The notes under the pieces were generated by a model. That model was not told the DNA's origin. It did no database searches and worked only from the letters and a program-made list of their open reading frames with translations. Positions 25,436-44,570 of a stretch of 64,000 nt of DNA are shown piece after piece. Both the position numbers and the translations under genes were made by a program. Position 1 is the first letter of the stretch; every line of letters begins with the position of its first letter. The DNA comes from Spirochaetia bacterium (lineage in GTDB: Bacteria; Spirochaetota; Spirochaetia; SZUA-6; Bin103), in NCBI GenBank assembly GCA_965208575.1, contig CBDBOV010000003.1:672001-736000 (forward strand), read 5' to 3'.

Positions 25436-25465
25436 TTGACATCAGTTACAGTGCCCTGCTACGAT
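25436..25465 (+). promoter_or_regulatory. Candidate sigma70 promoter
   Basis: TTGACA-18 nt-TACGAT with a TG extended -10, in an AT-rich patch facing the first ABC operon. Confidence 0.5.
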
Positions 25466-25922
25466 TGGAAACTCGAAGCCATGCGCCGGCACCGTATATT
25501 ATACGACGACAAGCTACCCCCCCCCCTCCAGCCCGGGGCAACTCTTTATACGAAAAGCCATTAACCGATCCGGCTGATCGCCCGGTACGCGACCCCGCGC
25601 ACGCCGTCGCCTTCACCACCGCCGTAGCTATCGGTGGCGCCGGCTCGGTCCATCGCCGAACCGGCATGCTGGCCGCCCGCGCCCTTCCCGGCGACCGCAA
25701 CGGTGCCGGATCCCCGCCCCGAACTCACCGTCACAGAACCGACCGTCGGCGTCGCCGGTCAATCACATTCGTTGCTCGGCCGACCAGCGCCCCGCGTGGC
25801 GTTATGACGCAGGTGCCAACGTCCGCCGAGCGGTCGGTGTTTGCATGATGGCGCGCGCACGCGGATCCCATGGTCCGTCAGGCATCTCGCAGGGCACCCA
25901 ACGTCCCAAGAAGGAGGTGAAG

Positions 25923-25958
25923 ATGTTACCGAAAGAACCGCACGCGCGCGCGGCGTGA
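25923..25958 (+). CDS. Leader peptide (uORF) MLPKEPHARAA, copy 1
   Basis: AAGGAGG 5 nt upstream; conserved with 41566-41601, including synonymous AAA GAA / AAG GAG changes. Confidence 0.65.
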   Translation: MLPKEPHARAA

Positions 25959-25993
25959 GCTGGGGTGAACCCGGTGAGTCACACGCCGCGCGC
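25946..25993 (+). promoter_or_regulatory. Attenuator-like hairpin overlapping the uORF stop, copy 1
   Basis: GCGCGCGGCGTG pairs perfectly with CACGCCGCGCGC; inner GGG-TGAA-CCC stem. Confidence 0.6.
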
Positions 25994-26101
25994 TTCAGCC
26001 ATTTGACTCAAAATGGCCGTCTGCGTTGCGGGCGCGAGAGTAGCCAGGGAGCGGCAAGCCGCTACGCAATACTCTCGAAAAATCCACATACGGAGGAACG
26101 T

Positions 26102-27916
26102 ATGAACATTGTAAAGATCAGAATGACGACCTTCGCGATTGCGTTGGTCCTCGTCGTTACCGCAACCGGCCTCTGGGCCGCTGGCGCCACAGACACGGAG
26201 TCGGCAGCGGCGGCCGAAAAGGAAATGGTGCGCGACCCCTCCACCGGCCAGATGGTGACCGCGCCCCAGTACGGCGGGACAATAACCTATCCCTACAATG
26301 TAGTTTTGGAGACTACTGACCCCCATACTAGCGGCCACTTTGCGGGTGACATCGACAGCGTCAATCAGCAGCTTGCCGTCCCGGACTGGGGAATAGATAG
26401 GGATCAACTTGACTATAGAAGCGGCTACATCGGTATGGAGTTCTATGTAGGGCAGCTGGCTGAAAGCTGGGAAATGCCTGACGATAGAACCTATATCTTC
26501 CACATCCGCCAGGGCGTTCACTACGCCCTTGACCCAGACAGTGAGGCCAGCCGCTTAGTAAACGGGCGGGAGCTCACAGCCGATGACGTCGTATATTCCA
26601 TTCAGCGTCATAGCGCTCTGGGCGACTTCACCGAACGCCCCGTTCGGACTTACGAAATGATCAATCTGCCATGGGAATCGATAGAGGCCACCGACAAATA
26701 TACGGTTGTTATCAAGATGAAGGAGTTCTCCCTCATTGCGCTAAGGGCTATCATCACCGAAGATTCATTTTGGATATTACCCCCCGAGGTAATCCAGAAA
26801 TACGGGAACTACGAGGATTGGAAGAACGTGGTCGGCACTGGGCCCCTTATGCTGACTGACTGGACCGAGGACGTCTCCAAGACCTGGACCAGGAATCCTG
26901 ACTACTGGGGCTACGACCCCAAATACCCGCAGAACCGCGTGCCCTATGTAGACGAGATAAGGGCCCTGTATATGCCAGAAAGAGCAACAGCTCTGTCGGC
27001 ACTACGCACGGGTAAGATTGATCTTACGGTGGGGAGTTTCCTTCTCAAGACTCTCGACGACGTAAAGAGCCTCGAGCGGACCAACCCCGAAATCACGGTG
27101 ACCACTACTTTCGGGACTTCTACGACTGTTTTTACTCTGAACACGCACAAGCCGCCCTTTGACGACATCAGGGTACGCCGCGCAATGCAGATGGCACTGG
27201 ACCTTGAGACGATTAGCGACACTTACTTTGGCGGTTTGGCTAGGTGGAAACCTCAGGGGGGCGTAGGGAAAGCCGTCGTGGGGTATAACACCTCATTTGA
27301 TGAGTATCCCGAAGAGGTCAAGCAATACTATATCTATGACCCGGAACGTGCCGAGAAGCTGCTTGAAGAGGCTGGATATCCGCGCGGCGCGGACGGCGTT
27401 CGACTCAAGGTCCACCTGCACCACCGCGATGTTTCGGATTTAGGCTATACAGAAATAGCTGTCAGCTACTGGGGTGAGATTGGCATTGATGTAGATGTTG
27501 GTATATACGACACGCCTTCTTGGGTAGCAGGCAGAGCAGACACTACGTTGTATGAGCTAGCCACTAGCTACCAGGGCTTTACTTATAACCCTGAAACCTG
27601 GGTAACCTATTATCGCACGGATTACAAACATCGGAGCGAATACATAGGCGGATACCAGAGCCCTGAGATGGACGCCCTGTATGACGCCTTTTTCGCCGCA
27701 AAAACCGTTGAGGAGCAGCAGAGGATATTTAAGGAGTTTGATATGGAGGTCGGCATAAAGCGGCACAATCAAGTATGGGGTCCTATAGCCCCAGGGTTTA
27801 TTCAGGCCCAGCCGTGGGTTATAGGCTATAACGGTGAAGTCACTGGAAATCGTCCTCGTCTCGCCCTCGTCCACCTTTGGATTGACCAGGAGATGAAGGA
27901 AGCAATGGGGCATTAG
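26102..27916 (+). CDS. ABC transporter substrate-binding protein, family 5
   Basis: Signal peptide ...ATGLWAAG, PQYGG, LAESWE, GTGP, VRRAMQMALD, LLEEAGY; GGAGG RBS. Confidence 0.92.
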   Translation: MNIVKIRMTTFAIALVLVVTATGLWAAGATDTESAAAAEKEMVRDPSTGQMVTAPQYGGTITYPYNVVLETTDPHTSGHFAGDIDSVNQQLAVPDWGIDRDQLDYRSGYIGMEFYVGQLAESWEMPDDRTYIFHIRQGVHYALDPDSEASRLVNGRELTADDVVYSIQRHSALGDFTERPVRTYEMINLPWESIEATDKYTVVIKMKEFSLIALRAIITEDSFWILPPEVIQKYGNYEDWKNVVGTGPLMLTDWTEDVSKTWTRNPDYWGYDPKYPQNRVPYVDEIRALYMPERATALSALRTGKIDLTVGSFLLKTLDDVKSLERTNPEITVTTTFGTSTTVFTLNTHKPPFDDIRVRRAMQMALDLETISDTYFGGLARWKPQGGVGKAVVGYNTSFDEYPEEVKQYYIYDPERAEKLLEEAGYPRGADGVRLKVHLHHRDVSDLGYTEIAVSYWGEIGIDVDVGIYDTPSWVAGRADTTLYELATSYQGFTYNPETWVTYYRTDYKHRSEYIGGYQSPEMDALYDAFFAAKTVEEQQRIFKEFDMEVGIKRHNQVWGPIAPGFIQAQPWVIGYNGEVTGNRPRLALVHLWIDQEMKEAMGH

Positions 27917-27955
27917 GGGTTTTGAGCAGCCGACAAGACTGACAGGGTGGGTCAC

Positions 27956-28929
27956 ATGAGAGCCTATATCATCAGGCGGTTATTGCTGATCATCCCCACC
28001 CTGTTTGTATTGAGCATCCTGGTCTTTCTCTCGGTCCGCTTCATCCCCGGCGATGTAATAGACGTAATGGTGGGTAGGATGGTAGGATGGAAGCCGAGTC
28101 GGGCGGCGGCGGCAAGCTTGACCGTGAAGCTATGGAGCGTATGCTGGGATTAGACCAGCCTGTGCACGTGCAGTATGGACGCTGGATCGGCGGCATCCTC
28201 CTGCACGGCACCCTTGGAGAATCACTGTTTCGCGGTTGGCGCATCGAGGAGCGCATGCTGGGACGACTGCCGGTCACCGCCGAGCTCGGGGTGCTGGCCA
28301 TCCTCATCGGCCTGGTCATCGCCCTGCCGGTTGGCATCTACTCGGCGGTGCGCCAGTACACGGCCGCCGACTACGTGGGACGGTCGGTCGCCATCATGGG
28401 GCTGGCCACGCCCAACTTCTGGCTGGGAACGATGGTGATGATCTACCCGGCCATCTGGTGGGCGTGGTCGCCACCGATGGAGTTTGTTTCCCTCTCCGAA
28501 GACCCGCTGGGGAACCTCGGCATGTTCCTCATCCCCAGCCTGATCCTCGGCACCTACCTGGCGGCCAGCACCATGCGCATGACGCGCACCATGATGCTGG
28601 AGGTGCTGCGCCAGGACTACATCCGTACCGCCTGGGCCAAGGGGCTGCTGGAGCGGTCGGTGATTCTGCGCCACGCGGTGAAGAACGCGATCATCCCGGT
28701 GGTGACGCTGGTGGGCATGCAGTTGCCGATCCTGGTGGGCGGCTCGGTGATCATCGAGAACATCTTCAACCTGCCGGGGCTGGGGCGGATGATGCTGGCT
28801 GCGCTCAACACCCGCGACTACCCGGTGGTCTCGGGGGTGAATCTGTTCTTCGCCACGGTGGTGGTGTTCGTCAATCTGCTGACCGATCTGCTGTATGCGT
28901 CGCTGGACCCACGGATTCGCTACGAATGA
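27956..28929 (+). pseudogene. OppB/DppB-like permease, frameshifted by an 8-bp tandem duplication
   Basis: MRAYIIRRLL start. GGTAGGAT occurs twice at 28073-28088; removing one copy joins ORFs 27947..28153 and 28087..28929 (...MVGRMEAESG...). Confidence 0.85.
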
Positions 28930-28938
28930 GGCACGCCC

Positions 28939-29898
28939 ATGGGTGACGTATCACAGCTGAGGCCGGCCGGCGCCGAGCCGGCCGCCGGGGCGGCTGCGGC
29001 TGGGCAGGCTGGAGCGCGGCGGTTCTTCGGCCGGCTGGTCCGTGAGCAGCCGTTGGGCACGGCCGGCGGCATCGTCATCCTGCTCCTGGTGCTGGTCAGC
29101 ATCTTCGCCGATTCGCTGGCGCCCTACCGCTTCGAGGAGATCCACCTGCGCGATCGCCTACAGGCCCCCTCGGCCGCGTACCTGCTGGGCACCGACCACG
29201 TGGGGCGTGACCTGTTGAGCCGCCTCATCCACGGGGCGCGGCTGTCGCTGTCGGTGGGGCTGGCCGCCACGGCCCTCAACGTCGTGGTGGCGGTGTTGAT
29301 CGGCGGCACCACCGGATTCATCGGCGGGCGGCTGGACCTGGTGACGCAGCGCTTCGTCGACGCCTGGATGGCGTTCCCGGGGCTGCTGTTGCTGCTGACG
29401 ATCATGTCGATTGCCGGCCGCGGCATGGCGCAGATCATCATCGTGCTGGGGGTGTCGGGCGGCATCCCGGCCTCGCGGGTGGTGCGCGGCGCGGTGCTGG
29501 GGGTGAAGGAGAACGTCTACTTCCAGGCGGCGCAGGCGATCGGCAGCTCGCGCCGGCGCTCGCTGCTGCGCCACGTGCTGCCCAACATCGCCGCGCCGAT
29601 CATCATCATCTTCAGCATCAACGTCGGCGGGGTGATCATGTCGGAGGCGGCGCTGAGCTTTCTCGGCTTCGGTCTGCCGCCGGACATACCGAGCTGGGGC
29701 GGCATGCTGAGCCGGGAGGGGCGGCAGTACATGGAGATTGCGCCGCATCTGGCGCTGTGGCCGGGCCTGTGTCTGACCGTGGTCGTCTACAGCCTCAACA
29801 TGTTCGGCGACGCGGTGCGCGACCTGCTGGACCCGCGGCTGCGCGGCCGGCTCGGGCGCTACGGCGCAGACGCCACGGCGCGGCCAAAGGCCAGCTGA
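28939..29898 (+). CDS. OppC/DppC-like permease
   Basis: LLGTDHVGRD, RHVLPN, EAALSFLGFG, PSWGGML, GDAVRDLLDP. Confidence 0.93.
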   Translation: MGDVSQLRPAGAEPAAGAAAAGQAGARRFFGRLVREQPLGTAGGIVILLLVLVSIFADSLAPYRFEEIHLRDRLQAPSAAYLLGTDHVGRDLLSRLIHGARLSLSVGLAATALNVVVAVLIGGTTGFIGGRLDLVTQRFVDAWMAFPGLLLLLTIMSIAGRGMAQIIIVLGVSGGIPASRVVRGAVLGVKENVYFQAAQAIGSSRRRSLLRHVLPNIAAPIIIIFSINVGGVIMSEAALSFLGFGLPPDIPSWGGMLSREGRQYMEIAPHLALWPGLCLTVVVYSLNMFGDAVRDLLDPRLRGRLGRYGADATARPKAS

Positions 29899-30019
29899 AC
29901 CCGAGCTGACACGCCGGCTCATCGCGGCGTTGGACGCCGGCGCTGCAACGCAAGGGGCACCGATTGATCACCTCTACCCCGACGCCGAGATTCTTGATGC
30001 CGAACCTTCGTCCGGGGCG

Positions 30020-30478
30020 TCACTAAGTATCTGCTGGGCAGCGACCGGCTCGGCAGGGATCTGTTCAGTCGACTCATCTACGGCGCCCGCCTGTCGCTCG
30101 TCGTCGGCCTGTCGGCGACGGCGCTGAACGTGGCAGTGGCGCATCATCATTTTCAGCATCAACGTCGGCGGCGTCATCATCGCCGAGGCCAGCTTGAGCT
30201 TCCTCGGTTTCGGTCTGCCGGCGAGTGTGCCGAGCTGGGGCGGCATGCTCAGCAGGGAAGGGCGCAGCTACATGGAGATCGCGCCGTGGCTGGCGATCTG
30301 GCCCGGCGTGTTCCTGACCATCACCGTGTACAGCCTGAACATGTTCGGCGACGCGCTCAGGGACCTGCTCGACCCGCGGCTGCGGGGCGGCACAGGGCGT
30401 CTCGGCGCCGATGCCGCCCGGACGGTCTCCAACGGAGCCCGCGGCGAGCCACGGGCTGCTGGCAGCACGGACCGCTAG
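30020..30478 (+). pseudogene. Second OppC-like permease remnant with missing 5' end and internal deletion
   Basis: YLLGSDRLGRDLFSRLIYGARLS...NVAVA is joined out of frame directly to IIIFSINVGG...GDALRDLLDP. Confidence 0.8.
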
Positions 30479-30558
30479 GGCAGCACCAGCGCCCGCACTT
30501 CCGCGTGCATGGCGCGCTCCAGCTCGATCAGCGCCGAGGTGTCGAGGACGAATCCCAT
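30475..30558 (-). pseudogene. VapC/PIN toxin stub (27 aa)
   Basis: MGFVLDTSALIELER..., a PIN N-terminal motif overlapping the antitoxin end, followed by an early stop. Confidence 0.7.
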
Positions 30559-30815
30559 GGGTTGTCCAGAATACGATCCGAGGAGTTGACCGCCTGCAGG
30601 TCGTCGGCGAAATCCGGGTCGACGCCAACGCTGGCGAGAGCACCCCAGACCTGACGCAGGGTCGCTGTGCGAGAACCGGCCGCCGGCACCAGCTCGGCGA
30701 TCGGCTTGCCGTTCTTGACCAGTACGAACTGGTCGTCGGTGTGCTTGATCCGGGCCAGGCAGTCACCCAGGTTGCGCGCCGCCCATGTGGTGGACACGGG
30801 AATTCTCATACGCAT
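30528..30815 (-). CDS. Phd/YefM-like antitoxin
   Basis: VSTTWAARNLGDCLARI...FVLVKNGKPIAELVP. Confidence 0.8.
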   Translation of the reverse strand: MRMRIPVSTTWAARNLGDCLARIKHTDDQFVLVKNGKPIAELVPAAGSRTATLRQVWGALASVGVDPDFADDLQAVNSSDRILDNPWDSSSTPRR

Positions 30816-30840
30816 AACGGTAAAGTACGGTTTGCGTGTT

Positions 30841-33513
30841 TCAAGTAGCCGCCTCCGCGCCGCCGACCTCCAGGTACAGCACGCTGCCGGCGTGCAGGTG
30901 AGCGGGTTCGGCGAGAATAACCGTCTGCTGCCGCTGGGCATACGGCAAGTCCTGGCCGTCCAGAGTCGCGTTGGTCACGCCCCGCTTGAGAAGCGGACTC
31001 GCGTCGAAACGCCGCAGTACGATCGATCCGTGCACCACCGACAGGATGACCCGGTCCGCATGCAACTCCACGGTTCCCCATGCGCTGCTCAGGCACCAGA
31101 AGTAGCGATGGTGAGTGCGTGCCTGCCGGGGATGGAAACCGATCTTGCCCCTGGTCATGTCGAACGTGAAGCCGCTGAGGGCGAGCAGCAGCGCGTAGGA
31201 GGACATGGCGCGGGCGTAGTTGCTGCCGCACTCCATCTCGTTCCACGGGTTGCGCTTCTCGCCGTCGTAGCGGGCCCGGATCGCCTGCACGATTTCGATG
31301 CCCTCGTCGACCAGCCCCTCCTGGATCATGTGGCCGGCGGCCTGGTACTCGAAACCGCTCATCGTCTCCTCGGCGAACGGGATGCCGGTGTTCGGCCGCC
31401 CGCGCCGGTAGGAGCAGGTCAGCACGCCCGCCTCGTCGTTCAGGCTGAACACGCGGCGCGGGTTGAAGGTGTGCCGCATCGCTCTGACGAAGTTGTACCG
31501 ATATACCGACCGCAGCGCAATGCGCCTCTGCTGCGGATCGAAGACCTCGCCGAGCCCCGAGATGTTGGCGTGCCACTGGGCGACCACCTGATCGATTCCA
31601 CAGCCGTCAGCCACCTGGTAGTTGATCCGCCCGCTCTCGGCGTCCCAGTACTCGTCCCAGTCGCGGCGCGTGGCGGTGCGACCGGTGTCGCCGTCGACCA
31701 CGGTGACATCGTCCTCGATCAGCTCGTCGAGCATGCCCTTGTCGGTCAGGTCGATGAGCTGGTGGTAGTACTCGCCGTTGAACAAGTGCGCGTCCACCCA
31801 GCGTTTCCCGCTCCGGAACAGGGCGCGGTACCCGGCCGCGGCGTCCGCGTCCTCCAGGTGGTCGGCCATCTCCGCGGCGGCCTTCAGGGCGGCCAGGTAG
31901 AAGCCGGTGAGCCACGAATTGGGGCCGAACAGCTCGGTGTCGAGGGTGTGGTGCTGGCGGCCTTCCAGTACGCCGTCCCGGTCGCGGTCCCACCGGTCGC
32001 GGTTCTCGGACGACCAGGCGAACGCCAGACTCTTTTTGATGGCGGGCCAGAGCTCGGCCAGCCACGCGGAGTCGCCCGCTATCTTCCAGTCCCGGTACAC
32101 CTTGACGATGCCGCCGAACTGGCCGTCGGCGCATGGCCGGAACGACGACCGCCCGCGGCCGAGTGGAAGCTGCAGGCGAAAGCTCATGCCGCCGTCCTCG
32201 CGCAGGTTGTAGCGGTAGTCGGCCTCGCGCATACCGCGTTCCAGCCGCGGAAACAGGAACGGCAGCGCGTAGGCGTAGTTCCACACGTGGGTGCAGCTCC
32301 CCTCGCAGCAGATCTCATCGGGGTGGCAGCCCTCGAATCCGTAGAAGGTGCCGTCCTGCAGGCGCAGCACGGTCGGGCTCTTGAGCACCGACAGGTTCGC
32401 GGACACCGCATCGACCACGGCCGCGGGCAGCGTCGAAGAAAACAGCGACTGCTTGAACGACAAGGTGTTCCGGTGCAGCCGGTCCCAGTTCGACAGGGCG
32501 TAGCGCGCCGCGTCGCCGGAGTCCTTCCAGAGCGTGGCGTAGTAGTTCCGCCAACTGCTGGCGGCGGGCTCTCCGCTCACCGGATCGTGCTGCGCCGGGT
32601 TCCAGTAGTTGGTGTAGACGGGGAAATTCCACGCCAGTACGAATCTCGCCCGGCCGCTCGATCCCGGTTGCACGCGCAGATGCGCGGCCAGCAGGCAGTG
32701 GGCGCTGCGCAGGCCTGCCCCACGGGCGCGGACTTCTTCGTAGCCGCGATTCGCGAACCTGCCGGCCGTCGACAGGTCGCGCCAGTAGGCGCTCACGTCA
32801 TCGACCCACATCCCCTTGTAAGCGGCCCGGCGCCAGTACTCCTGGTAGCTGACATCGCTCGCGTCGGTGGCCACGGTCATGTCTCCCGCCGCCGGGCCAC
32901 CCGCTCCCGCGCCACGCGCTTCCATCCCGATCATGGAGAGTCCGTCGATCCGCTGAAACCGGTTGACCTTGGCGTCTCCCGGTACCGGGTTGTTGACCGA
33001 CAGGCAGACCGTGTAGGTCAGCGCCATGTCTTGAGGGTTGTGGACCTCGACCTCGAAGAAGGCCGCCGGGATGCTGGAGTCGTCCTCGTCGAGCGGAATG
33101 AAGGGGTTGAACGCGGTGATGGTCACGGTGCCGGGAAACGCGTCGTCGCGCAGCGAGAGCGCGGCGATCGGAAACTCGCCGCGGAAGCTCGCGGTACGGA
33201 AGTGTGGCGCCGCCGACAGGTGGCTGCGCGGCGGACCCGATCCGAACGGCGTGCTGCCGGCGCCGGCTCTCAGGCTCCCGGTGTACGGCGGCTGAAGATC
33301 CCCCTGCAGGACGCGCGCGTCGAGCACCTCGCCGTCTCGTTCCGCCCTGACGGCAAAGTGGGTGTAGCCGTTGCTGCTGCCCTTGTTGGGCCGGTTGAAG
33401 ATCTCCCAGTCGACCAGCCGCCCGTCACCCGCCAGGCCGATGCAGCCGCTGCCGATCCCTCCCAGCGGAAACGAAATCTCCGCGGTCTTCGAGCCCTCAT
33501 AGACAAGCTCCAT
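30841..33513 (-). CDS. GH116 family glycoside hydrolase (non-lysosomal glucosylceramidase-like)
   Basis: FPLGGIGSG, WEIFNRP, FYGFEG, CTHVWNY, ADGQFG, QHHTLD, RYDG..RNPWNE.ECG..YARAMSS. Confidence 0.88.
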   Translation of the reverse strand: MELVYEGSKTAEISFPLGGIGSGCIGLAGDGRLVDWEIFNRPNKGSSNGYTHFAVRAERDGEVLDARVLQGDLQPPYTGSLRAGAGSTPFGSGPPRSHLSAAPHFRTASFRGEFPIAALSLRDDAFPGTVTITAFNPFIPLDEDDSSIPAAFFEVEVHNPQDMALTYTVCLSVNNPVPGDAKVNRFQRIDGLSMIGMEARGAGAGGPAAGDMTVATDASDVSYQEYWRRAAYKGMWVDDVSAYWRDLSTAGRFANRGYEEVRARGAGLRSAHCLLAAHLRVQPGSSGRARFVLAWNFPVYTNYWNPAQHDPVSGEPAASSWRNYYATLWKDSGDAARYALSNWDRLHRNTLSFKQSLFSSTLPAAVVDAVSANLSVLKSPTVLRLQDGTFYGFEGCHPDEICCEGSCTHVWNYAYALPFLFPRLERGMREADYRYNLREDGGMSFRLQLPLGRGRSSFRPCADGQFGGIVKVYRDWKIAGDSAWLAELWPAIKKSLAFAWSSENRDRWDRDRDGVLEGRQHHTLDTELFGPNSWLTGFYLAALKAAAEMADHLEDADAAAGYRALFRSGKRWVDAHLFNGEYYHQLIDLTDKGMLDELIEDDVTVVDGDTGRTATRRDWDEYWDAESGRINYQVADGCGIDQVVAQWHANISGLGEVFDPQQRRIALRSVYRYNFVRAMRHTFNPRRVFSLNDEAGVLTCSYRRGRPNTGIPFAEETMSGFEYQAAGHMIQEGLVDEGIEIVQAIRARYDGEKRNPWNEMECGSNYARAMSSYALLLALSGFTFDMTRGKIGFHPRQARTHHRYFWCLSSAWGTVELHADRVILSVVHGSIVLRRFDASPLLKRGVTNATLDGQDLPYAQRQQTVILAEPAHLHAGSVLYLEVGGAEAAT

Positions 33514-33518
33514 CGACG

Positions 33519-33575
33519 TCAGTGGTCTATGCGCAGGAGGCGTTCGAGATCCCGCGCCCCGTGGATCACGCGCAA
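33519..33575 (-). pseudogene. C-terminal tail of a deleted ParE/RelE toxin
   Basis: LRVIHGARDLERLL, the typical ParE C-terminal motif, directly after the ParD-like gene. Confidence 0.65.
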
Positions 33576-33916
33576 TCCGACCGTGCCTCTAGCTGCTTGC
33601 GCAAGCGCCGCATCGCGCTCGGGCCGTCGGTTACGCGGCCGTGTTCCACGTCCTGCATCGCCGCGTCAACCAAGCCGCCGAAGTGAGCCCGCGCGCGCGC
33701 CTTCAAATCCGCCGGAAGCTGCTCCGCTTCCTGTTCGCTCAGTCCATCGTAGATCCATTTCTCCAAGAGGCGGCGATGCTCGCTCTGCTCAAGCAAGCGC
33801 AGTCCCTCCCGGACCACTTCGCTGGCGGTTCTATAACGTCCCGCCGACACCAGAGCGTCCACGAAGGCATCCTGGTGTCGGGGCAGGGAGACGTTCCTGG
33901 TCTGCCGGTCAGCCAT
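33566..33916 (-). CDS. parD: ParD-like RHH antitoxin
   Basis: RNVSL....AFVDALVSAGRYRTASEVVREGLRLLE. Confidence 0.85.
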   Translation of the reverse strand: MADRQTRNVSLPRHQDAFVDALVSAGRYRTASEVVREGLRLLEQSEHRRLLEKWIYDGLSEQEAEQLPADLKARARAHFGGLVDAAMQDVEHGRVTDGPSAMRRLRKQLEARSDCA

Positions 33917-34119
33917 GGCGTCAGTCTGCCATAATATCGGTCACATATCAATATTCGCCACACCGTTCCAAATCTGGGGTTGCGCTCCGTAAGGTAGTCG
34001 ACACAGATCCTGGCGGGCTCGCTGGCAGGTTCGTTGGGGTCCACGAAGTACGCCCACCAAGTACGCATTGTCGCGTTGCGACGCAGGCAGGATATTCCGG
34101 GTCAACGAGGGTACGGAGG

Positions 34120-37100
34120 GTGAAGGGAACAGCGCAACTCGCGGTGCCGGCTGGGGCGGAGGAAGGGTTGCCGTCGCGGTCGGGGATCGGTCCGGGCGCC
34201 ACGGCACCGGCGGCGTGCGTCCTGCACGGCGCATGGGTGCCCGGCGAGGCTGGCGGCCGGTTCCTGGTGTGGGCTGAAACCACGCACCGCACGCGCCGGA
34301 GGCGCGCGGGCGACCATCCATTCCAACTGCGCCGGGAGCAACTCGCGGACGCGCTCGCGGAGGCGTGGCCGTCGCTATTCGAAACCGCCGGTATTGCGTC
34401 CAAGCGCGGTTCGGCCTGGGCCGTATTGCCCAGTGACGGCGAGCGGCCCGCGCCTTCGCTGGAGTTGCAGGCGGAGTTGGACGAGGAGATCGCCGCCGTA
34501 ACCGGCTGGGAGACCTGGCGGGTGGATGTGGCGGAGGTGGCCGACCCGCTCGCATTGCTTCGCGCGCTCGATCGGCGCCCGCAGGTGACGCCGCGCACGG
34601 GTGCGGCGCAGGTCATCCGGATCGGGGACGATGTGAGCTTCTGGAGCCGCTTGGCCGGGAGCTTCGAGCGGGCCGTTCGCCACCACGAGTATCTGCCGGC
34701 CATCTTCGCAGCGCGACCGGAGGCACCGCCGGCGCCGCAGTCGCGCCGCAACCGCCGCAACCGCGGCAACCGCGGCAGGATGGCGCGCGAGCGTGCCGTT
34801 CGGTTCGAAGCTGGCTGGGAATTCTCAGCCACCGCGGAGGAGAGCATCGTGGAGCCATTCGCCCGCGCGATGCCGGGGGCGTGCCGGGCGCTGTGGGCGG
34901 CAGCGCCTCCCAGGACCGGAGAGGATCCCGAGTTGCACGAGCCGCGCGCGCTCCTGCGCCACTTCCTGGCGGTGCACCTGCACCGGCTTGTTGGCGGCAC
35001 GCGGTTTCCGCAGTCGGTATTGAAGAGCGTCCAAGGGTCGTTTCTGGTGCAGGCGCTGCCGCCGGCTGAGCCTGCTCACCCGGTCGCACGGAGTCACGAA
35101 GCTCCTATCGGTGAACACACCTGGGCGCAGTGGCGGCGCTGGCGCGACCGCATGCGGCGGTCGGCGCTGGCCGCCGACGAACGGGTGTGCTTCCGCCTGG
35201 CTGACGCGAAGGGCGGGTCGCCCGACGCCTGGCGCCTCGAGTGGCTCCTGTCATCGCGCCGCGATCCGTCACTGCTGGATTCGCTCGCCGACTACTGGGG
35301 ATCCGGGAGCTCCGCGCGGCCGGGGGCGCGCAGCGTGCGCGAGATCCTGTTGCAACTGGGCCAGGCGGCGCGCATCTACGCCAAGCTCTGGGAGGGCATG
35401 GACAGCGAGGCCCCCGCGGAGGTGGTCCTGGACCGCGCCGAGGCGCTCGAATTCCTGCGCCGGCAGGCCCCGATTCTGCAAGGAGCGGGGTTCCGGGTGA
35501 TCGTGCCGGCGTGGTGGACCGCGACCGGCCAGCGGCGCCTGCGCCTGCGCTTGACGTCGCGGAGTTCGAGCGGCGCAGCCGCTGCCAACGGCACAGCCGC
35601 TCCCGGATCCGAGCCGGCGGCGATGCTGGGGTTCGACACGCTGCTCGCGTTCAATGCGCAGGTGGTCCTGGACGGCGAGCCGATCACCGCGAGCGAGTGG
35701 CGAAGCATCGTTGCGGCAAAGGAAGGCCTGGTTCGGCTGCGCGGGCAGTGGATGGAATTGCGCGGCGACGAGGTGGCGCGTCTGGAGGAGTACTGGGCGG
35801 CCGATGCCGGTTCACAGACCATGACGGTGGCCGACCTGTTGCGCGCCGAGGCTGGTTCCGACGCCCTGGAAGTGGTCTGCGAAGGCGCCGTCGGCCGCAT
35901 GCTCGCCGTCCTGCGCGGCACCGGCTCGCTGGAGATGCTCGACCAGCCCGCCGGGTTCGCCGGCGAGTTGCGCGGCTACCAGGTGCGCGGGTTTTCCTGG
36001 CTGGCGTACCTGGAGCGCCTCGGATTTGGAGCGTGCCTGGCCGACGACATGGGGTTGGGAAAGACCATCCAGGTGCTGGCGGCGGTGCTGCAGGACAAGG
36101 CGCGCAACCCCGATGCCGGGCCCACGCTGCTGATCGCACCCACCTCGGTGGTCGGCAACTGGCAGCGCGAAACGAGACGTTTTGCACCGGCGCTCACCAC
36201 CTGCCTCCACCACGGACCGCAGCGGGTCAGGACCGGGGAGGCGTTCGAGGAAGCGATCCGGGGCATCGACATTGTCGTTGCCTCGTTCGGAGTCGCCCGG
36301 CTGGACGCGTCGGTCCTGCAGAAGGTGCGCTGGTGGCGCCTGGTCGTGGACGAGTCCCAGAACGTCAAGAACCCGACGGCGGCGGTGACCAAGGCGATCC
36401 GCGGCATCCCGGCGCGACGGCGCATCGCCCTGACCGGCACTCCCGTCGAGAACCGGCTGATGGACCTGTGGTCGCTGTTCAGCGTGCTCAATCCCGGCTT
36501 CCTGGGCACCATGGCCGAGTTTCGCAAGAACGTGGAGCGGCCGATCATGCGCGACCGCAGCCGCGCGGCGACCGAGCGTCTGCGCAGCCTGGTGCGCCCG
36601 TTCATCCTGCGCCGCATGAAAACCGACCGTGCGATCATCAAGGATCTGCCCGACAAGGTGGAACAGAACTCCTACTGCAATCTGACTCCCGAGCAAGCCA
36701 CCCTGTATGAAGCGGTTGTCCGCGACCTGGAAGCGAGGCTCCGGGACACCGAGGAGAGCGGGCGCCAGGGGCTGCTGCTCTCCACGCTGCTGCGCCTGAA
36801 GCAGATCTGCAACCATCCGGCGCAGTTTCTCCAGGATGCCAGCGAGTTCACCGAGACACGCTCGCACAAGCTGGCGCGCGTTTGCGAGATGCTCGACGAG
36901 ATCGAGGCGGAGCGCGAATCGGTGCTGGTGTTCACTCAGTTCACGGAAATCGGCAAATCGCTGGAAGCGCTGTTCCGGCGGCGCTACGGCGGCGCGGTCT
37001 ACTACCTGCATGGCGGCACGCCGCGGGCGCGGCGCGAGCACATGGTGGAGGAGTTCCAGGATCCCGAAGCCGAGCCGGCGATCTTCGTGCTGTCGTTGCG

Positions 37101-37407
37101 TGCCGGCGGCACCGGCATCACGCTGACGCGGGCGAATCACGTCATTCACTTCGATCGCTGGTGGAATCCCGCCGTCGAGAACCAGGCCACCGACCGCGCC
37201 TACCGCATCGGGCAGCGCAACAGCGTGTTCGTCCACAAGATGGTGACCATGGGCACGCTCGAGGAGCGCATCGACGCGTTGATCGAGTCCAAGAAGAAGC
37301 TGGCGGAGGATATCGTGGGCGGCGACGAGTCGTGGCTGGCGAATCTGGACAACGACGCCTTTCGTCGGTTGATCGCGCTGGACCGCGGCGACGCGGTCGT
37401 GAGCTGA
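34120..37407 (+). CDS. SNF2-family (SWI2/SNF2) helicase-like ATPase
   Basis: LRGYQ..G, LADDMGLGKT, DESQNVKN, LTGTPVEN, LRRMK, VFTQF, FDRWWNPAVENQATDRAYRIGQ. This is the real 3' part of the 2246-aa track ORF; start approximate. Confidence 0.9.
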   Translation: MKGTAQLAVPAGAEEGLPSRSGIGPGATAPAACVLHGAWVPGEAGGRFLVWAETTHRTRRRRAGDHPFQLRREQLADALAEAWPSLFETAGIASKRGSAWAVLPSDGERPAPSLELQAELDEEIAAVTGWETWRVDVAEVADPLALLRALDRRPQVTPRTGAAQVIRIGDDVSFWSRLAGSFERAVRHHEYLPAIFAARPEAPPAPQSRRNRRNRGNRGRMARERAVRFEAGWEFSATAEESIVEPFARAMPGACRALWAAAPPRTGEDPELHEPRALLRHFLAVHLHRLVGGTRFPQSVLKSVQGSFLVQALPPAEPAHPVARSHEAPIGEHTWAQWRRWRDRMRRSALAADERVCFRLADAKGGSPDAWRLEWLLSSRRDPSLLDSLADYWGSGSSARPGARSVREILLQLGQAARIYAKLWEGMDSEAPAEVVLDRAEALEFLRRQAPILQGAGFRVIVPAWWTATGQRRLRLRLTSRSSSGAAAANGTAAPGSEPAAMLGFDTLLAFNAQVVLDGEPITASEWRSIVAAKEGLVRLRGQWMELRGDEVARLEEYWAADAGSQTMTVADLLRAEAGSDALEVVCEGAVGRMLAVLRGTGSLEMLDQPAGFAGELRGYQVRGFSWLAYLERLGFGACLADDMGLGKTIQVLAAVLQDKARNPDAGPTLLIAPTSVVGNWQRETRRFAPALTTCLHHGPQRVRTGEAFEEAIRGIDIVVASFGVARLDASVLQKVRWWRLVVDESQNVKNPTAAVTKAIRGIPARRRIALTGTPVENRLMDLWSLFSVLNPGFLGTMAEFRKNVERPIMRDRSRAATERLRSLVRPFILRRMKTDRAIIKDLPDKVEQNSYCNLTPEQATLYEAVVRDLEARLRDTEESGRQGLLLSTLLRLKQICNHPAQFLQDASEFTETRSHKLARVCEMLDEIEAERESVLVFTQFTEIGKSLEALFRRRYGGAVYYLHGGTPRARREHMVEEFQDPEAEPAIFVLSLRAGGTGITLTRANHVIHFDRWWNPAVENQATDRAYRIGQRNSVFVHKMVTMGTLEERIDALIESKKKLAEDIVGGDESWLANLDNDAFRRLIALDRGDAVVS

Positions 37408-37423
37408 CGAGGAGGGCGGCACA

Positions 37424-38305
37424 TTGTCAGGGCGGAGCAAGACCTGGTGGGGCGAGGAGTTCCTGAACGCCCTGGAGAGCTGCATGGACGCCGGCCGACT
37501 GTCGCGAGGGAGGAGCTACGCCGCGCCGCGCAGACGGACGGATTTCTCGATCCGGCAGGGCAGGGTCGAAGCCACGATGGTCGGCAACGTCAATCCTCAC
37601 TTCGGCGTCTACAAGACCCCTTACTACACCGTGAACATCGAGCTCGAAAAGGTCGGCGCTGCCCGCTGGAGAGCGATCCTGGGGCGATTGGGCTCCAATG
37701 CGGACTGGGTAACGCATCTGATTCTGGGGGAGGTGCCGCCCACTATCGAGAAGGCGTTCGCCGGCTCGAGGGTCAAGCTGCTGCCGCGCACGGGCGAGGA
37801 GATTCGCTCATCCTGCTCCTGTCCCGACTGGGCAAATCCGTGCAAGCACGTGGCGGGCGTGTACTTCCACGTTGCGGCGCTGCTCGACCGCGATCCCCTG
37901 CTACTGTTCGAGCTGCGGGGCATGGATCGCTTGCAACTCCGGAAGGCCGTCTCACAGTCGGAGTTCGGCGCGGCGTTGCTCGGCGCTGCCGGCGCCGGAG
38001 ACCGCGATCCTGCCGCGGCGGTGCGGGAGCCGCGCATCCCCGCGGTGGCGGTGAGCGGCAGCGATACCCCCGCCTCCGACCTGCGGGCGTTCTGGCGCGG
38101 GAGAACGCTGCCGCGGGAGGTGACGGCGGAGGGCCAGGCGCCGCCGGTCTCCGCCCTGCTGTTGCGCCGGGAGGGCGACTATCCGGAGTTCTGGCACCGT
38201 AACACCTCGTTCATCGAGGCGATGGCGGCCGTGTACGAGCGCGTCGCAAAGGGGATCCCGCCGAAGTCCGCCGAAGCTCTTCCCGACGGCAGCCGGCAGC
38301 TTTAG
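37424..38305 (+). CDS. SWIM zinc-finger protein
   Basis: TWWG, RLSRGRSYA, CSCPDWANPCKH, DPLLLFELRG. Confidence 0.9.
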   Translation: MSGRSKTWWGEEFLNALESCMDAGRLSRGRSYAAPRRRTDFSIRQGRVEATMVGNVNPHFGVYKTPYYTVNIELEKVGAARWRAILGRLGSNADWVTHLILGEVPPTIEKAFAGSRVKLLPRTGEEIRSSCSCPDWANPCKHVAGVYFHVAALLDRDPLLLFELRGMDRLQLRKAVSQSEFGAALLGAAGAGDRDPAAAVREPRIPAVAVSGSDTPASDLRAFWRGRTLPREVTAEGQAPPVSALLLRREGDYPEFWHRNTSFIEAMAAVYERVAKGIPPKSAEALPDGSRQL

Positions 38306-38316
38306 CCGGATCCCGT

Positions 38317-39312
38317 TTATCGAGTCTGCTTGCGGCGAATCAGGCGCAGGAAGTCGGCCTCGTCGCGGCACTGCAGCGCGGCCTGCACCAGTGCCGCAAC
38401 AGAGACGTTCTGCAGATCGGCGAGGCGCCCGGAAAGCGCTGCCGACACCGCAATGCCTCGCGACTTCAACACGTGCAGCACGGCGGTTCGCGTCATCTCG
38501 ATCCGTCCTTCCGCGCGGCCCGCGGCATGGCCCGCGGCATGGCCCGCGGCATGGCCCCGCAGGCGTTCGGCCCGCAGTTGCGGGTCGTCTTCCGGCCCAG
38601 TGCCCTCGACGGCGCCCAGTGCCCGCCCCACCCGGCGCAACGCCGTCACGGTGGCATCCGACAACTCCGGTTCGTTCAGCGCGCGGTGGATCTCCTGCGC
38701 CGTCCAGCCAGGAAAGGCGCGGCTGGAGGGCGCGGTGCGAAAGACGCCGCCCGCCAACAGGTGAATCGTCAGGCCGGGACGCAGACCCGCCGGGCGGCTC
38801 GGCGAGGACTGCTCGGGCACCTCGACCCACACCTCCGGGAAGCCCCACGACTCGTACAGCGACAGCTTGCCGAGACGCACGTCGGTGGTGTTGTCCACCT
38901 CCAGCACCACGTCCGGCAGCGTGTCGCTGCCCACTTCGATTGCCGGACCGGTGGGCCGCGTCGTACGCGGGTGCAGATACACGGTCTGGTCGGCCTCCAG
39001 GATGCGCAGGTACGCGCCATCGTCATCGCGCAGCAGCAGGTCCGCGTGGCCGAATGCCTCGATCGGCGAGCCGCGCACCAGGGCGATCCGTGTCGCGAGC
39101 TGGAGTAGTCGCTGGCCCGGGTGTTCGTGGTAGACGCTGACCGGATCACACACCATGGCGACCTCGGTAGTGGCGTCCCAGTACTCGATGCGGCGCTCGC
39201 AGTGGGCGATCTCGGCGCGCGAGATGCGCACCGGCCGGCAACCGGGAAACTCGAGCGACGGCACCTCCTGCTGCGCCGGGTGCGGCACGATGGTGGCGCG
39301 GTATTCAGCCAT
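38317..39312 (-). CDS. Uma2/DUF820-like PD-(D/E)xK endonuclease, copy 1
   Basis: HEHP, EADQTVY, PDVVLEVD, KLSLYESWGFPEVW; helical C-terminal tail. Confidence 0.85.
   Translation of the reverse strand: MAEYRATIVPHPAQQEVPSLEFPGCRPVRISRAEIAHCERRIEYWDATTEVAMVCDPVSVYHEHPGQRLLQLATRIALVRGSPIEAFGHADLLLRDDDGAYLRILEADQTVYLHPRTTRPTGPAIEVGSDTLPDVVLEVDNTTDVRLGKLSLYESWGFPEVWVEVPEQSSPSRPAGLRPGLTIHLLAGGVFRTAPSSRAFPGWTAQEIHRALNEPELSDATVTALRRVGRALGAVEGTGPEDDPQLRAERLRGHAAGHAAGHAAGRAEGRIEMTRTAVLHVLKSRGIAVSAALSGRLADLQNVSVAALVQAALQCRDEADFLRLIRRKQTR
38517..38557. repeat. 12-bp tandem repeat, three copies (GHAA)
   Basis: (ggcccgcggcat)x3 in the Uma2 linker; absent from the paralog at 48967-49911. Confidence 0.9.
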
Positions 39313-39557
39313 GGCACCGATCCTACCACAGGAGCGACCGATCATTCCATAACCCCGCGGCACAGGGGCCGGCCCGCTGGTCACCAACAACCAGTGCGAG
39401 TTCGACCGGGCGGATGGCCTGCGCATGGCCCGCTGGGTGTAAGTCCGCGCGCCCGGCGCCCGCGGCGCTCCGCTCGCCGCGCGCTTGACCGGGGGGCAGG
39501 GGCGGACTACCGTGGCCGAATAATCACCTGGCACGGAGTGTTCCAAGGAGGAGATCG

Positions 39558-41510
39558 ATGACTACCAGAGGAGTGTTGCTGAGCGCGGCGCTGGCGCTGC
39601 TGGCGCCGTTTGCGCTGCTGGCGGGCGCCACCGAGGAGGGCTCGGAGTCGAGCACCGAGATGGCCGTTCCGGCCGGCAAGTACAAGGAAGCGCCGATGCT
39701 GGCGGCGCTGGTGGCGGCGGGAGAGCTGCCGCCGGTCGACGAACGGCTGCCGCTGGAGCCGCGGGTGGCGCCGCCGGTGGAGGAGGTCGGCACCTACGGC
39801 GGTACGCTGAACGTGGTGTCCATCGACAAGAACCCGTGGAACGACATCACCGAGTCGCCCGAGAACGTCGGCGCCCGCTTCCTGGAGATGACCGGCGACG
39901 GTTCGGTGGTGCCCGACCTGGCGCGCGGCTACGAGCTGACCGACGACGGCAAGAGCTTCACCGTCTACATGCGCGAGGGGGCGAAGTGGTCGGACGGCCA
40001 CCCGCTCACCGCCGACGACGTAGTCTTCGCGTTCGAGGACATGCACTGGAACGACCAGGTGGAGACCTGGAACCTGTTCCCTGGCGTCAGCAGGGTGGTG
40101 AAGGTGGACGACTACACGGTCCGCTTCGAGATGGACGAACCCTACTTCGCCATGGAGCTGATCATGGTGCAGTGGCCGGGCGGCGAGTGGGTCGCCTTTC
40201 ACCCCAGGCACTACCTGGCGAAGTGGCACATCAACCACAACGACGACGCCGAAGCGGTGGCCGCGGAAGAGGGCTTCGACTCCTGGTCGGAGGCGTTCCG
40301 CTACCACTTCTGGTGGGCGCCGCTGAACGACCTGGACAAGCCGACGGTGATGGCGTGGCGGATTTCCGATCTCACCGCGACGGTCAAGGCGCTTGAGCGC
40401 AATCCATACTTCTACCAGGTCGACGAGGCGGGCCAGCAGCTTCCCTACATCGACCGCGTGGTCGCCACCATCGTGGACCCGGAGCTGTACCACCTGAAGA
40501 TCATCCAGGGCGAGGCGGACATCGCCTCCATGTTTACGGAGTTCAAGAACTGGACCCTGTACAAGCAGAACGAGGAGGCGGGCGACTACACCGTGCACCC
40601 GGCGGCGGGCATCACCGCGGCGCAGACCGGCCTGGAGATCAACCAGAATCACGACGATCCGGGCCTGCGCCAGGTGCTGAACGACGTCCGCTTCCGGCAG
40701 GCGCTGTCGATCTCCCTCAACCGCGAGGAGATCAACAAGGTGATCTACCACGGCCTCGGCGTGCCGTTCCAGGCCACCGCGATGCCGACCGCGAGCTTCT
40801 ACAAGGAAGAGTGGGGCAGGGCGTACAACCAGTTCGATCCCGACGAGGCGAACCGGCTGCTCGACGAGGTGGGCCTGACCGCGCGCGACTCGCGCGGATT
40901 CCGGCTGCGGCCCGACGGCGAGCCGATGTTCCTGGCGGTGGAGGCCACCAGCCGCACCATGCTGGAGCTGGAGCTGGTCAAGGAGTACTGGGAAGACGTC
41001 GGCCTGGAGGTGGGGATCAAGGAATTGCCCAATGCGCTGTTCAGCGAGCGCGGCCGGGCGCTCGACCACATCATCACCGTGCACCCGTTCGAGACCACCA
41101 CCGAGGTGGCCAGCTACAACTGGTCGCGCGCCGGTCCGGGCCGCTGGTGCCCGGCGTGGAACCAGTGGCTGCAGGCGAACGAGGACATTCGCAAGGGCAC
41201 CAAGACGCTGGCCGACTTCACCGACGGCATGCTGCCCGGTGAGGAGCCGCCGCAGGACGTCAAGGACCTGTACGAGTGGGGCATCAGCAAGCCGCGCACC
41301 CGGTTCCTGTCACCCGAGTACACCGAGCTGTCGCAGAAGATCTACGACCTGTGGGCGGAGAAGCTGTACATCATCGGCACCGTCGGCATGGCGCCGCAGC
41401 CGGTGATCGCCAAGAACAACCTCGGCAACGTGGTGAAGGAGTACCCGCTGTCCGCCGAGTGGGCCGGCGGCCTGCACAACGAGGTCCAGCAACTGTTCTG
41501 GAAAAACTGA
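39558..41510 (+). CDS. ABC transporter substrate-binding protein, family 5 (different subfamily)
   Basis: AAGGAGG RBS; EAPML...GELPPVDERLP, YGGTL, KWSDG.PLTADDV, QLPYIDR, FRQALS. Confidence 0.92.
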   Translation: MTTRGVLLSAALALLAPFALLAGATEEGSESSTEMAVPAGKYKEAPMLAALVAAGELPPVDERLPLEPRVAPPVEEVGTYGGTLNVVSIDKNPWNDITESPENVGARFLEMTGDGSVVPDLARGYELTDDGKSFTVYMREGAKWSDGHPLTADDVVFAFEDMHWNDQVETWNLFPGVSRVVKVDDYTVRFEMDEPYFAMELIMVQWPGGEWVAFHPRHYLAKWHINHNDDAEAVAAEEGFDSWSEAFRYHFWWAPLNDLDKPTVMAWRISDLTATVKALERNPYFYQVDEAGQQLPYIDRVVATIVDPELYHLKIIQGEADIASMFTEFKNWTLYKQNEEAGDYTVHPAAGITAAQTGLEINQNHDDPGLRQVLNDVRFRQALSISLNREEINKVIYHGLGVPFQATAMPTASFYKEEWGRAYNQFDPDEANRLLDEVGLTARDSRGFRLRPDGEPMFLAVEATSRTMLELELVKEYWEDVGLEVGIKELPNALFSERGRALDHIITVHPFETTTEVASYNWSRAGPGRWCPAWNQWLQANEDIRKGTKTLADFTDGMLPGEEPPQDVKDLYEWGISKPRTRFLSPEYTELSQKIYDLWAEKLYIIGTVGMAPQPVIAKNNLGNVVKEYPLSAEWAGGLHNEVQQLFWKN

Positions 41511-41565
41511 TCGACGGGTGGCGAGCCATTGGCATCCCGACATAGATCCAGTGAAGGAGGTTCGA

Positions 41566-41601
41566 ATGATACTCAAGGAGCCGCACGCGCGCGCGGCGTG
41601 A
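41566..41601 (+). CDS. Leader peptide (uORF) MILKEPHARAA, copy 2
   Basis: AAGGAGG 5 nt upstream; same length and C-terminus as 25923-25958. Confidence 0.65.
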   Translation: MILKEPHARAA

Positions 41602-41640
41602 GCCGGGGGTGAACCCGGATGAGTCACACCCCGCGCGCGT
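41585..41640 (+). promoter_or_regulatory. Attenuator-like hairpin overlapping the uORF stop, copy 2
   Basis: GCGCGCGGCGTG...CACCCCGCGCGC (one mismatch); inner CCGGG-GGTGAA-CCCGG stem. Confidence 0.6.
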
Positions 41641-41707
41641 CACAAATCGACTCAGACCGGCCGCCGCCTTGGCGGGCGCGAAAAACAAACCGACACAGGA
41701 GTTACGT

Positions 41708-44569: not shown

Positions 44570-44570
44570 C

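Follow-up and report, generated by a model that had tools for sequence, protein, structure and literature searches.

Within a 64,000-nt stretch of DNA from an uncultured Spirochaetia bacterium (hereafter the window; C3:672001-736000, contig CBDBOV010000003.1 of the 6.5-Mb assembly GCA_965208575.1, genome G000, 67% GC), two operons with genes for family-5 solute-binding proteins (SBPs) carry the same compact module in their leader region. It consists of a strong ribosome-binding site (RBS), a small open reading frame (ORF) of 11 codons and a long GC-rich hairpin, P1, whose 5' arm is formed by the end of that ORF. The module recurs in front of SBP genes elsewhere in this genome and in related genomes, and the pattern of its codon changes points to selection on a short peptide. 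On these grounds, we put the chances at about even that it represents a ribosome-dependent, genus-specific, multi-copy 5' leader, acting as a switch or a stabiliser, of Opp/Dpp-type family-5 SBP operons for ATP-binding cassette (ABC) transport. Translation of the leader, the 5' end of its mRNA and any regulation by it are what we infer from the sequence. The host bacterium is probably sponge-associated. All coordinates are window positions unless a contig is named, and all features of the two sites lie on the + strand.

Two leader modules in the window

At site 1, the Shine-Dalgarno (SD) sequence AAGGAGG (25911-25917) is located 5 nt before the ATG of the leader ORF (25923-25958), which reads MLPKEPHARAA and ends with a UGA at 25956-25958. 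Hairpin P1 (25946-25993; folding energy -36.3 kcal/mol, z -2.9, with all z-scores comparing folding energies against dinucleotide shuffles) comprises a 12-bp GC outer stem, 25946-25957 with 25982-25993, and an inner stem-loop (25959-25975) with a GGG-UGAA-CCC stem; codons 8-11 make up its 5' arm together with the UGA, which lies at the top. In the 3' internal loop, the sequence UGAGUCA (25975-25981) is complementary to, and a possible partner of, a UGACUCA at 26004-26010. Further downstream follow hairpin P3 (26018-26034), with 7 bp and a GUU loop according to the alignment pairing, and a 3' domain, P4 (26036-26076; -22.2 kcal/mol, z -3.0), in which GAGAGUA and UACUCUC enclose GCGG-CAAG-CCGC. 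The SD and start codon of the SBP gene itself occupy 26092-26104 (GGAGG at 26092-26096, ATG at 26102), and the gene (26102-27916) codes for a 604-aa protein of family PF00496 (E 4e-61).

Site 2 exhibits the same order, with AAGGAGG at 41554-41560, a 5-nt spacer, an ORF reading MILKEPHARAA (41566-41601, UGA at 41599-41601) and a P1 hairpin at 41583-41641 (-36.5 kcal/mol, z -2.95). A P3-like hairpin can be read from the sequence at 41657-41680 in this copy, which is devoid of P4, and the SBP gene (41708-43522) again encodes 604 aa with a PF00496 match. The leader stop codon and the SBP start codon are 143 nt apart at site 1 and 106 nt apart at site 2. Protein identity between the two SBPs is 40%, whereas the leader cores are nearly identical. 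The essentials of the preliminary description of this DNA were thus reproduced at both sites: two 11-codon ORFs behind AAGGAGG and 5 nt, a UGA within the 5' arm of P1, and SBP bodies that have diverged much further than their leaders. Chance is excluded as the source of the arrangement at the two sites.

Copy number, placement and distribution

Iterated nhmmer searches of the genome returned 59 matches, comprising 58 full copies and one partial fragment of 41 nt. The preliminary description had spoken of only two copies, which is correct for the window but not for the genome, and the search it proposed for this and related genomes proved productive. A covariance model (R1), built from 61 copies (alignment A2) and run on 24 genomes of the family, gave 62 matches in G000 and 263 in the family as a whole. 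These matches are confined to eight of the 24 genomes, all of which belong to a single genus, g1, of which 11 genomes were included; the counts are 62 in G000, 83 in G005, 43 in G001, 35 in G006, 33 in G003, five in G007 and one each in G004 and G008. R1 had no match in G002, G009 and G010 of the same genus or in 13 genomes of the sister genus, and blastn did not find the leader in 17 genomes from other families of the order. The nearest SBP relatives come from records of metagenome-assembled genomes (MAGs) titled "Spirochaetia bacterium," while remoter ones, from Dehalococcoidia and unclassified MAGs, are without the leader. When metagenome contigs were scanned with a word of 19 nt from the 3' arm of P1, four matches emerged, none with leader features. 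Rfam gave no match for the whole window at gathering scores and none for 25850-26130 at E values up to 10, and no account of such an element was found in the literature searched.

In 57 of the 58 full copies, an SBP-profile match, either a family-5 SBP gene of about 600 aa or a remnant of one, follows downstream on the same strand, and the SBP genes head their operons. This agrees with the earlier proposal that the module precedes a family of transporter operons. A few of the SBP genes behind leaders are truncated or frameshifted. Homology between the leaders begins at the SD of the leader ORF and extends over about 190 nt up to the start codon of the SBP gene. The median DNA identity among leaders is 71% with the variable flanks counted (higher in the core), and the 54 full-length SBP paralogs have a median of 47% in protein identity; the leader is thus much more tightly conserved than the genes behind it. 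The high copy number could also be explained by a mobile repeat, similar to repetitive extragenic palindromic (REP) sequences, that spread by happenstance into SBP upstream regions. REP sequences and miniature inverted-repeat transposable elements are scattered in either orientation, however, whereas here 57 of the 58 copies have one orientation and a fixed distance to the SBP start, the homology continues up to the SBP start codon, and among the 59 matches only one remnant and the 41-nt fragment lie away from SBP genes. We therefore regard a repeat of this kind as a most improbable explanation.

Family-5 SBPs are hugely expanded in this genome: the SBP profile matches 183 ORFs with a minimum length of 450 aa, among which 113, scoring above 400 bits, are close paralogs. 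A third copy of the leader is found about 1.4 kb past the end of the window, on the minus strand at C3:737298-737422. Its aligned start codon is ACG and an in-frame TAA occurs at codon 5, and its SBP gene is intact.

Codon-level selection on the leader open reading frame

The small ORF is apparently translated, as judged from its start, its codons and its end. The start codon begins with A in 47 of the 61 aligned copies, with G in nine, with T in four and with C in one, and the T and G at the second and third positions are each kept in 57. Among 94 distinct copies, the aligned start codon is ATG in 60, GTG in nine, TTG in five, CTG in three and a different triplet in 11, with six copies unanchored; ATG, GTG or TTG is therefore present in 74. 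An SD-like motif is found 4-14 nt before the start in 73 of the 88 anchored copies. The family consensus is MILKEPHARAA followed by a stop codon, and 34 of the 94 distinct copies are identical to it.

The clearest signal comes from the codon changes, which were counted by Fitch parsimony on a tree of the N-terminal parts of the SBPs behind 91 copies. For codons 3-6 (L-K-E-P), 6, 10 and 60 changes are inferred at the first, second and third positions, respectively (0/7/12 for CTC, 3/0/10 for AAA, 2/1/17 for GAA and 1/2/21 for CCG), and the changes are the synonymous ones, to CTG, AAG, GAG and CCN. By our own arithmetic, the four most variable of these 12 sites would share one phase by chance with a probability of about 3/495. 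In L112, a diverged copy, different codons encode VILKEPPTRAA. Selection on Lys-Glu as a peptide, which had been suspected from the two copies in the window, is supported by this dominance of third-position changes (60 versus 10 and 6). Codon 7, with 19/11/18 changes, and codon 8, with 21/9/3, vary at all positions, and seven copies stop at codon 7 (MILKEP); other C-termini are ETR, PSS and LSP. Hence, the conserved peptide, as far as codon changes can define it, is M-[I/V]-[L/R]-K-E-P. The HARAA segment is conserved only where it is also part of the P1 stem, as a caveat to the preliminary description had anticipated; the C-terminal Ala-Ala degron suggested at the same time must be abandoned, as HARAA is not conserved as a peptide.

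The ORF has at most 14 codons in 83 of 88 copies, and its end always falls within P1 or just before it. TGA serves as the leader stop codon in 73 of these 88 copies, TAG in 10 and TAA in five; in DNA of 67% GC, stop codons are rare by our own estimate. Deletions of 3 and 6 nt leave the frame intact (VTRKDPRAA and MTRKEPRAT, each followed by a stop codon), and a single frame-breaking deletion, of 2 nt, is common to two close paralogs. Read-through of the UGA with P1 acting like a selenocysteine insertion sequence (SECIS) was considered and rejected, as the read-through frames of the two window copies, by reading, end differently.

Secondary structure of the leader

Default RNAalifold on a MAFFT alignment recovered only part of P1 and mispaired the rest, and its output was replaced by a hand-drawn structure, comprising the outer and inner stems of P1, P3, P4 and the UGAGUCA/UGACUCA pairing, which was scored on alignment A2. 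In this structure, 91.8% of 2797 cells are paired, compared with 28-53% after shifting the 3' partners by 1-3 columns, and 13 pairs show double changes versus 6.2±1.8 in shuffles, none of 500 of which reached 13. The outer stem of P1 is paired in 98% of cells across 61 copies. P3 is paired in 93.8% of cells, with three double-change pairs and many C-to-U changes opposite G. The ratio of G·U to A·C combinations is 13:4 in P1, 52:5 in P3, 32:21 in P4 and 11:14 in UGAGUCA/UGACUCA. As G·U outnumbers A·C in P1 and P3, these two behave as sense-strand RNA helices.

The same ratio bears on the possibility that the module is a DNA operator, in which the GC inverted repeat and the TGAGTCA/TGACTCA palindromes bind one transcription factor that co-regulates the SBP operons. 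Palindromic arms that hardly vary on either side would fit such an operator, as would the TGACTC-like words that recur further upstream in one subfamily. Nevertheless, an excess of G·U over A·C is strand-specific and indicates RNA rather than duplex DNA, the element lies downstream of promoter-like sites, and the codon periodicity of the ORF is foreign to an operator; we consider this explanation very unlikely.

The UGAGUCA/UGACUCA pairing is feasible in 82-92% of cells and has no covariation support; it may represent a possible pseudoknot or alternative helix. P4 is possibly pseudoknotted as well, as its GCCAG (26043-26047) can also pair with (C/A)UGGC (26013-26017). P4 is absent from three of 58 copies, site 2 of the window included, and conversely, in three SBP genes a promoter of their own is followed by P3 and P4 only, with the ORF and P1 missing. 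Consequently, since each half occurs without the other, ORF/P1 and P3/P4 can be viewed as separable modules. Several additional elements were tried and rejected: a tertiary helix between GUUGCG of the P3 loop and CGCAAU of the P4 loop (all four readable variant copies are uncompensated), a hairpin "P0" upstream of the SD (mean -8.3 versus -8.9 kcal/mol for random 34-mers of the genome, p 0.8), and conservation, across leader classes, of the two outermost pairs in the P4 stem (pairing in 30 of 44 cells versus 27.1±1.7 in shuffles, 153 of 2000 of which were at least as high; not significant).

Transcription context

Promoter-like sites of the sigma-70 type (TTGACN-N16-18-NANNNT) are present within 260 nt upstream of 16 of the 58 copies, compared with 1.9% of 5000 random windows. 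As these sites lie upstream of the ORF, the leader ORF is probably situated inside the 5' untranslated region. A sigma-54 promoter (CTGGC...TTGC) was also considered and was rejected, because the GG-GC spacing is 11 nt instead of 10 and P3 shows the G·U pattern of an RNA. In four sponge RNA libraries of one study, contigs run through the region of the SD and the ORF and continue upstream into the flank of another subfamily. This RNA evidence is weak, as it consists of contigs only, from a sequence with many copies and with possible carry-over of DNA; gaps, depth and ends of these contigs are uninformative on the 5' end or the expression level. In the contigs of four metatranscriptome libraries from sponges, all of one study, leader-like sequence (compared with window 25864-26145) abounds; most of it is 90-95% identical and so stems from paralogs or relatives.

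Evidence against a ribosome-dependent leader

A number of observations weigh against a leader that depends on ribosomes and changes its fold. Ten of the 58 copies in this genome have no ATG, GTG or TTG at the aligned place, where GTC, GTA, ATC, ACG, GCG, GAG or CCT is found instead, and seven of these ten precede intact SBP genes. Outside G000, L038, which is the sole copy in genome G008, has lost both SD and start codon with the codons on the hairpin side unchanged, and L124 has lost the start codon and keeps an SD-like motif that abuts the conserved codons; both retain the next 14 nt letter for letter. Codon usage also points beyond the peptide: at codon 2, ATA is found in 65 of 88 copies and ATC in none, and AAA and GAA are used in 78 and 71 of the 88, contrary to the usage in SBP genes, in which ATC makes up 70% and ATA 13% of Ile codons, AAA 14% of Lys codons and GAA 28% of Glu codons. 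A constraint at the level of RNA or codons therefore operates beside the one on the peptide. P1 is nearly invariant and shows a double change in only one of 12 pairs; there is almost no true covariation in this hairpin because its arms hardly vary. Constrained folding, a duplex search and a conserved-helix scan gave no single conserved alternative fold. Folds computed with a ribosome at the stop codon, and duplexes of the P1 3' arm freed in this way, were GC-rich, imperfect and inconsistent, and a candidate helix of 9 bp between the 5' arm of P1 and the P3 apex came from the conserved-helix scan. Finally, a terminator scan of 25450-26120 detected no terminator-like site on the + strand, so that classical transcription attenuation is not supported. 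The earlier idea of an attenuation-type leader consequently stands only in part: the ORF does end inside a hairpin, but an intrinsic terminator is lacking on the + strand.

Copies that lose the start codon and keep the hairpin had been named beforehand as grounds for refuting the role of the ORF. Such copies exist, as the ten of 58 illustrate, but the start is kept in the others, and one of the ten is an alignment shift that in fact reads GTG. Broken SBP genes were not significantly more frequent behind copies that lack the start (three of 10 versus four of 48, Fisher p 0.09), and a link between the two was rejected. These copies, which retain the sequence behind the missing start or SD, fit an RNA-only cis element, riboswitch-like or a protein-binding leader, in which the ORF is incidental and ACUCAAAGAACC together with P1 is recognised as RNA. 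The very high nucleotide conservation on both P1 arms would be expected of such an element, as would the third base of codon 2, fixed as A contrary to genome usage, and the presence of P3/P4, with compensatory changes, in further SBP leader classes as well as alone behind a promoter in three copies. It does not account for the three-periodic changes in codons 3-6, the NTG pattern of the start with an SD at the right spacing, the switching of the stop among TGA, TAA and TAG, or the in-frame 3- and 6-nt deletions that preserve a short ORF, and Rfam has no match to it even at the permissive E values given above. On balance, we think an RNA-only element rather unlikely.

Other leader classes of solute-binding protein genes

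The SBP genes of this genome that do not carry the main leader bear other conserved leader classes. One sister class shares P3 and a P4-like domain, and in it, the strand GCCCUCGC pairs with GCGAGGGC across the GAGAG strand, which corresponds to a pseudoknot topology. As this pairing crosses that of GAGAGUG with CACUCUC, and compensatory variants between subfamilies can be seen by eye, this second leader class probably contains an H-type pseudoknot. Its loci are spread over contigs C5, C6, C4 and others of G000 (e.g., C5 near 882051 and 887122, minus strand), and in relatives it is represented by L064, L068, L077 and L079. A third SBP subfamily, with SBPs starting MTPRL... (contigs C5 and C6, e.g., C6 near 1147988, minus strand), exhibits its own conserved leader, in which two hairpins, GGCCGGAGUUUCCGGCC and ACGGG..CCCG, are placed just before the RBS; the scan for an SD and ORF did not find an upstream small ORF in this leader.

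An SD followed by an ORF of 1-8 codons was detected in 11 of 30 leaders with a P4-like domain, in none of 30 without it and in 2.4% of random windows. An upstream RBS with a very short ORF thus seems to be a recurrent feature of SBP leaders in this organism. The short ORFs of the sister class read M, L, VKK, MSM and MPPQTGYD, each followed by a stop codon, and an eight-codon ORF in a relative keeps T-G-Y-D, with TAG in place of TGA. Another sister class, of three leaders, exhibits GGAGG without a start codon 6 nt behind it. The conserved peptide and P1 appear to occur only in the main leader family.

These classes are pertinent to a simpler function of the module, namely that of a constitutive 5' stabiliser or booster: an upstream ribosome and stable hairpins would shield the SBP mRNA, with neither sensing nor a switch, where SBP is needed in excess over the permeases, in a way that resembles STAB-SD elements. 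We hold this to be possible, though doubtful. In related classes with ORFs of 1-3 codons, or with an SD and no start, the peptide cannot matter, which favours a role of the occupancy type; the lack of a terminator on the + strand, the A-rich start region in a genome of 67% GC and the first position of the SBP genes in their operons are in line with it. Mere ribosome loading, however, does not need selection on K-E-P at the amino acid level, a hairpin that provides stability need not keep its sequence, and the module at site 2 lies 55 nt behind another SBP gene and not at an obvious 5' end. The selection on the K-E-P peptide argues for a more specific role, which would have evolved in the main family.

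Proposed mechanism and comparison with known systems

A ribosome-dependent leader could operate as follows. The mRNA would start at a sigma-70-type promoter 40-250 nt upstream of the leader, which would then present the strong RBS, the ORF of usually 11 codons (M-[I/V]-[L/R]-K-E-P-x-x-R-A-A-stop), P1 and P3, followed in 55 of 58 copies by the possibly pseudoknotted P4 and, about 25 nt later, by the RBS of the SBP gene. A ribosome that decodes codons 7-11 and the stop codon would have to melt all of P1, and its dwell time would therefore set the fold of the leader. What determines this dwell time might be the K-E-P peptide, the rare codons ending in A, or the termination step at the UGA. The choice between P1 and another fold would then affect SBP output via mRNA stability or translation, not via intrinsic termination, and one cis element could place more than 50 uptake operons under a single translational signal.

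In a more specific version, which we consider quite unlikely, the nascent M-I-L-K-E-P would be an arrest or pausing sensor in the ribosome that gates the uptake regulon in response to a metabolite, to the supply of charged tRNA or to a translation factor. If so, it would constitute a "leader-peptide regulon" of 58-83 SBP operons per genome under one translational signal, and the whole uptake of peptides and amino acids by a sponge symbiont would be gated without a terminator or a protein regulator. The known arrest peptides TnaC, SpeFL, SecM and RAPP (PMC8429421, PMC10951233, PMC7897499) are likewise encoded by short upstream ORFs with conservation at the amino acid level. Because the ORF ends next to or inside the structure, there as here, a stall would hold that structure open. 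The R-A-A-stop of the leader ORF faintly recalls the R-A-G-P and R-A-P-P of arrest peptides. Unlike RAPP and SecM, however, the leader ORF contains neither RAPP/RAGP nor Pro-Pro, and its C-terminus is unconserved, with endings such as R-A-A, K-E-P and E-T-R; those peptides precede Sec/YidC genes, whereas a PF00496 SBP lies downstream in 57 of 58 copies here. Arrest of the TnaC/SpeFL type with Rho-dependent termination involves a ligand-dependent stall and a Rho loading site after the stop codon; the region after the stop codon here is GC-paired and not an open C-rich stretch.

In geometry, the module resembles ribosome-mediated attenuators such as trpL/hisL and bmrB-bmrCD of Bacillus subtilis (PMC4191407), in which the last codons of the leader ORF also form the first strand of a hairpin. 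The position of the ribosome decides the fold in such attenuators, as is proposed here, and the element stands upstream of a transporter operon. In contrast to the trp, his and leu attenuators, MILKEPHARAA has no tandem regulatory codons, its three Ala codons are fixed by P1 pairing, and neither a terminator hairpin with a U-tract (25450-26120, + strand) nor a consistent alternative fold was identified. It differs from attenuators also in its conserved K-E-P core and in the repetition of the same leader 58-83 times per genome. The module therefore appears attenuator-like in its geometry, but it fails the tests that define that family, tandem codons and a terminator.

A loose precedent from spirochaetes is the gene bmpA of Borrelia burgdorferi, which codes for an SBP-type lipoprotein. 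A second SD and a small leader ORF with rare codons are described upstream of bmpA, and removal of the SD raised expression in that study (10.1101/542589). Both cases combine an additional SD with a small ORF ahead of an SBP gene in a spirochaete. The bmpA ORF, however, is 32 codons long, and its overlap of 8 bp with the main start points to coupling or occlusion; it is single-copy and has no similar sequence or hairpin, and the ORF analysed here ends 106-143 nt before the SBP start. Upstream RBS/start-stop elements and STAB-SD elements (PMC13285730, 10.1101/520783, PMC4113751) possess an upstream SD, with a minimal ORF optional, and act on the downstream gene via ribosome occupancy. Such start-stop elements are resembled by the sister leaders whose ORFs have 1-3 codons, whereas the main family differs by its conserved 11-codon peptide and hairpin, and its distance to the main RBS is too large for direct occlusion. 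STAB-SD elements act without a start codon; most copies here possess one, and the sister class of three leaders has GGAGG with no start 6 nt behind it.

If the leader ORF gates expression, unusually many operons would be under a single leader-peptide module, and ribosome-dependent control would take a form that does not end in a classical terminator. With an ORF of 36 nt and a hairpin of 48 nt, the module offers a compact object for testing how short nascent peptides act with downstream structure, and it may bear on the coordination of nutrient uptake in host-associated bacteria with hugely expanded transporter families. Even as a stabiliser, the module and its sister leaders would be abundant, unannotated RNA elements missing from Rfam. 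The system is noteworthy mainly for a scale of 58-83 copies per genome, a clean codon signature and the lack of a terminator, in a host that is uncultured and with a function that we infer.

Surroundings of the two sites

The SBP gene of site 1 is followed by two permease genes (28087-28929 and 28939-29898, both PF00528, BPD_transp_1) and that of site 2 by permease genes at 43613-44569 and 44535-45539 (BPD_transp_1). At site 1, a small hairpin, CAUACG-GAGGAA-CGUAUG (26086-26104), places the SD of the SBP gene in the loop, with the start codon forming part of the stem; a subset of copies contains this hairpin, and the terminator scan listed it on the opposite strand. Site 2 starts 55 nt (41511-41565) after another SBP gene (39558-41510), which has an ordinary short leader with a TTGACC promoter-like site. 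Given this short distance, the module at site 2 would be either intercistronic or driven from inside the upstream gene. Between both SBP operons, a very long ORF of 2246 aa extends from 30667 to 37407 on the + strand.

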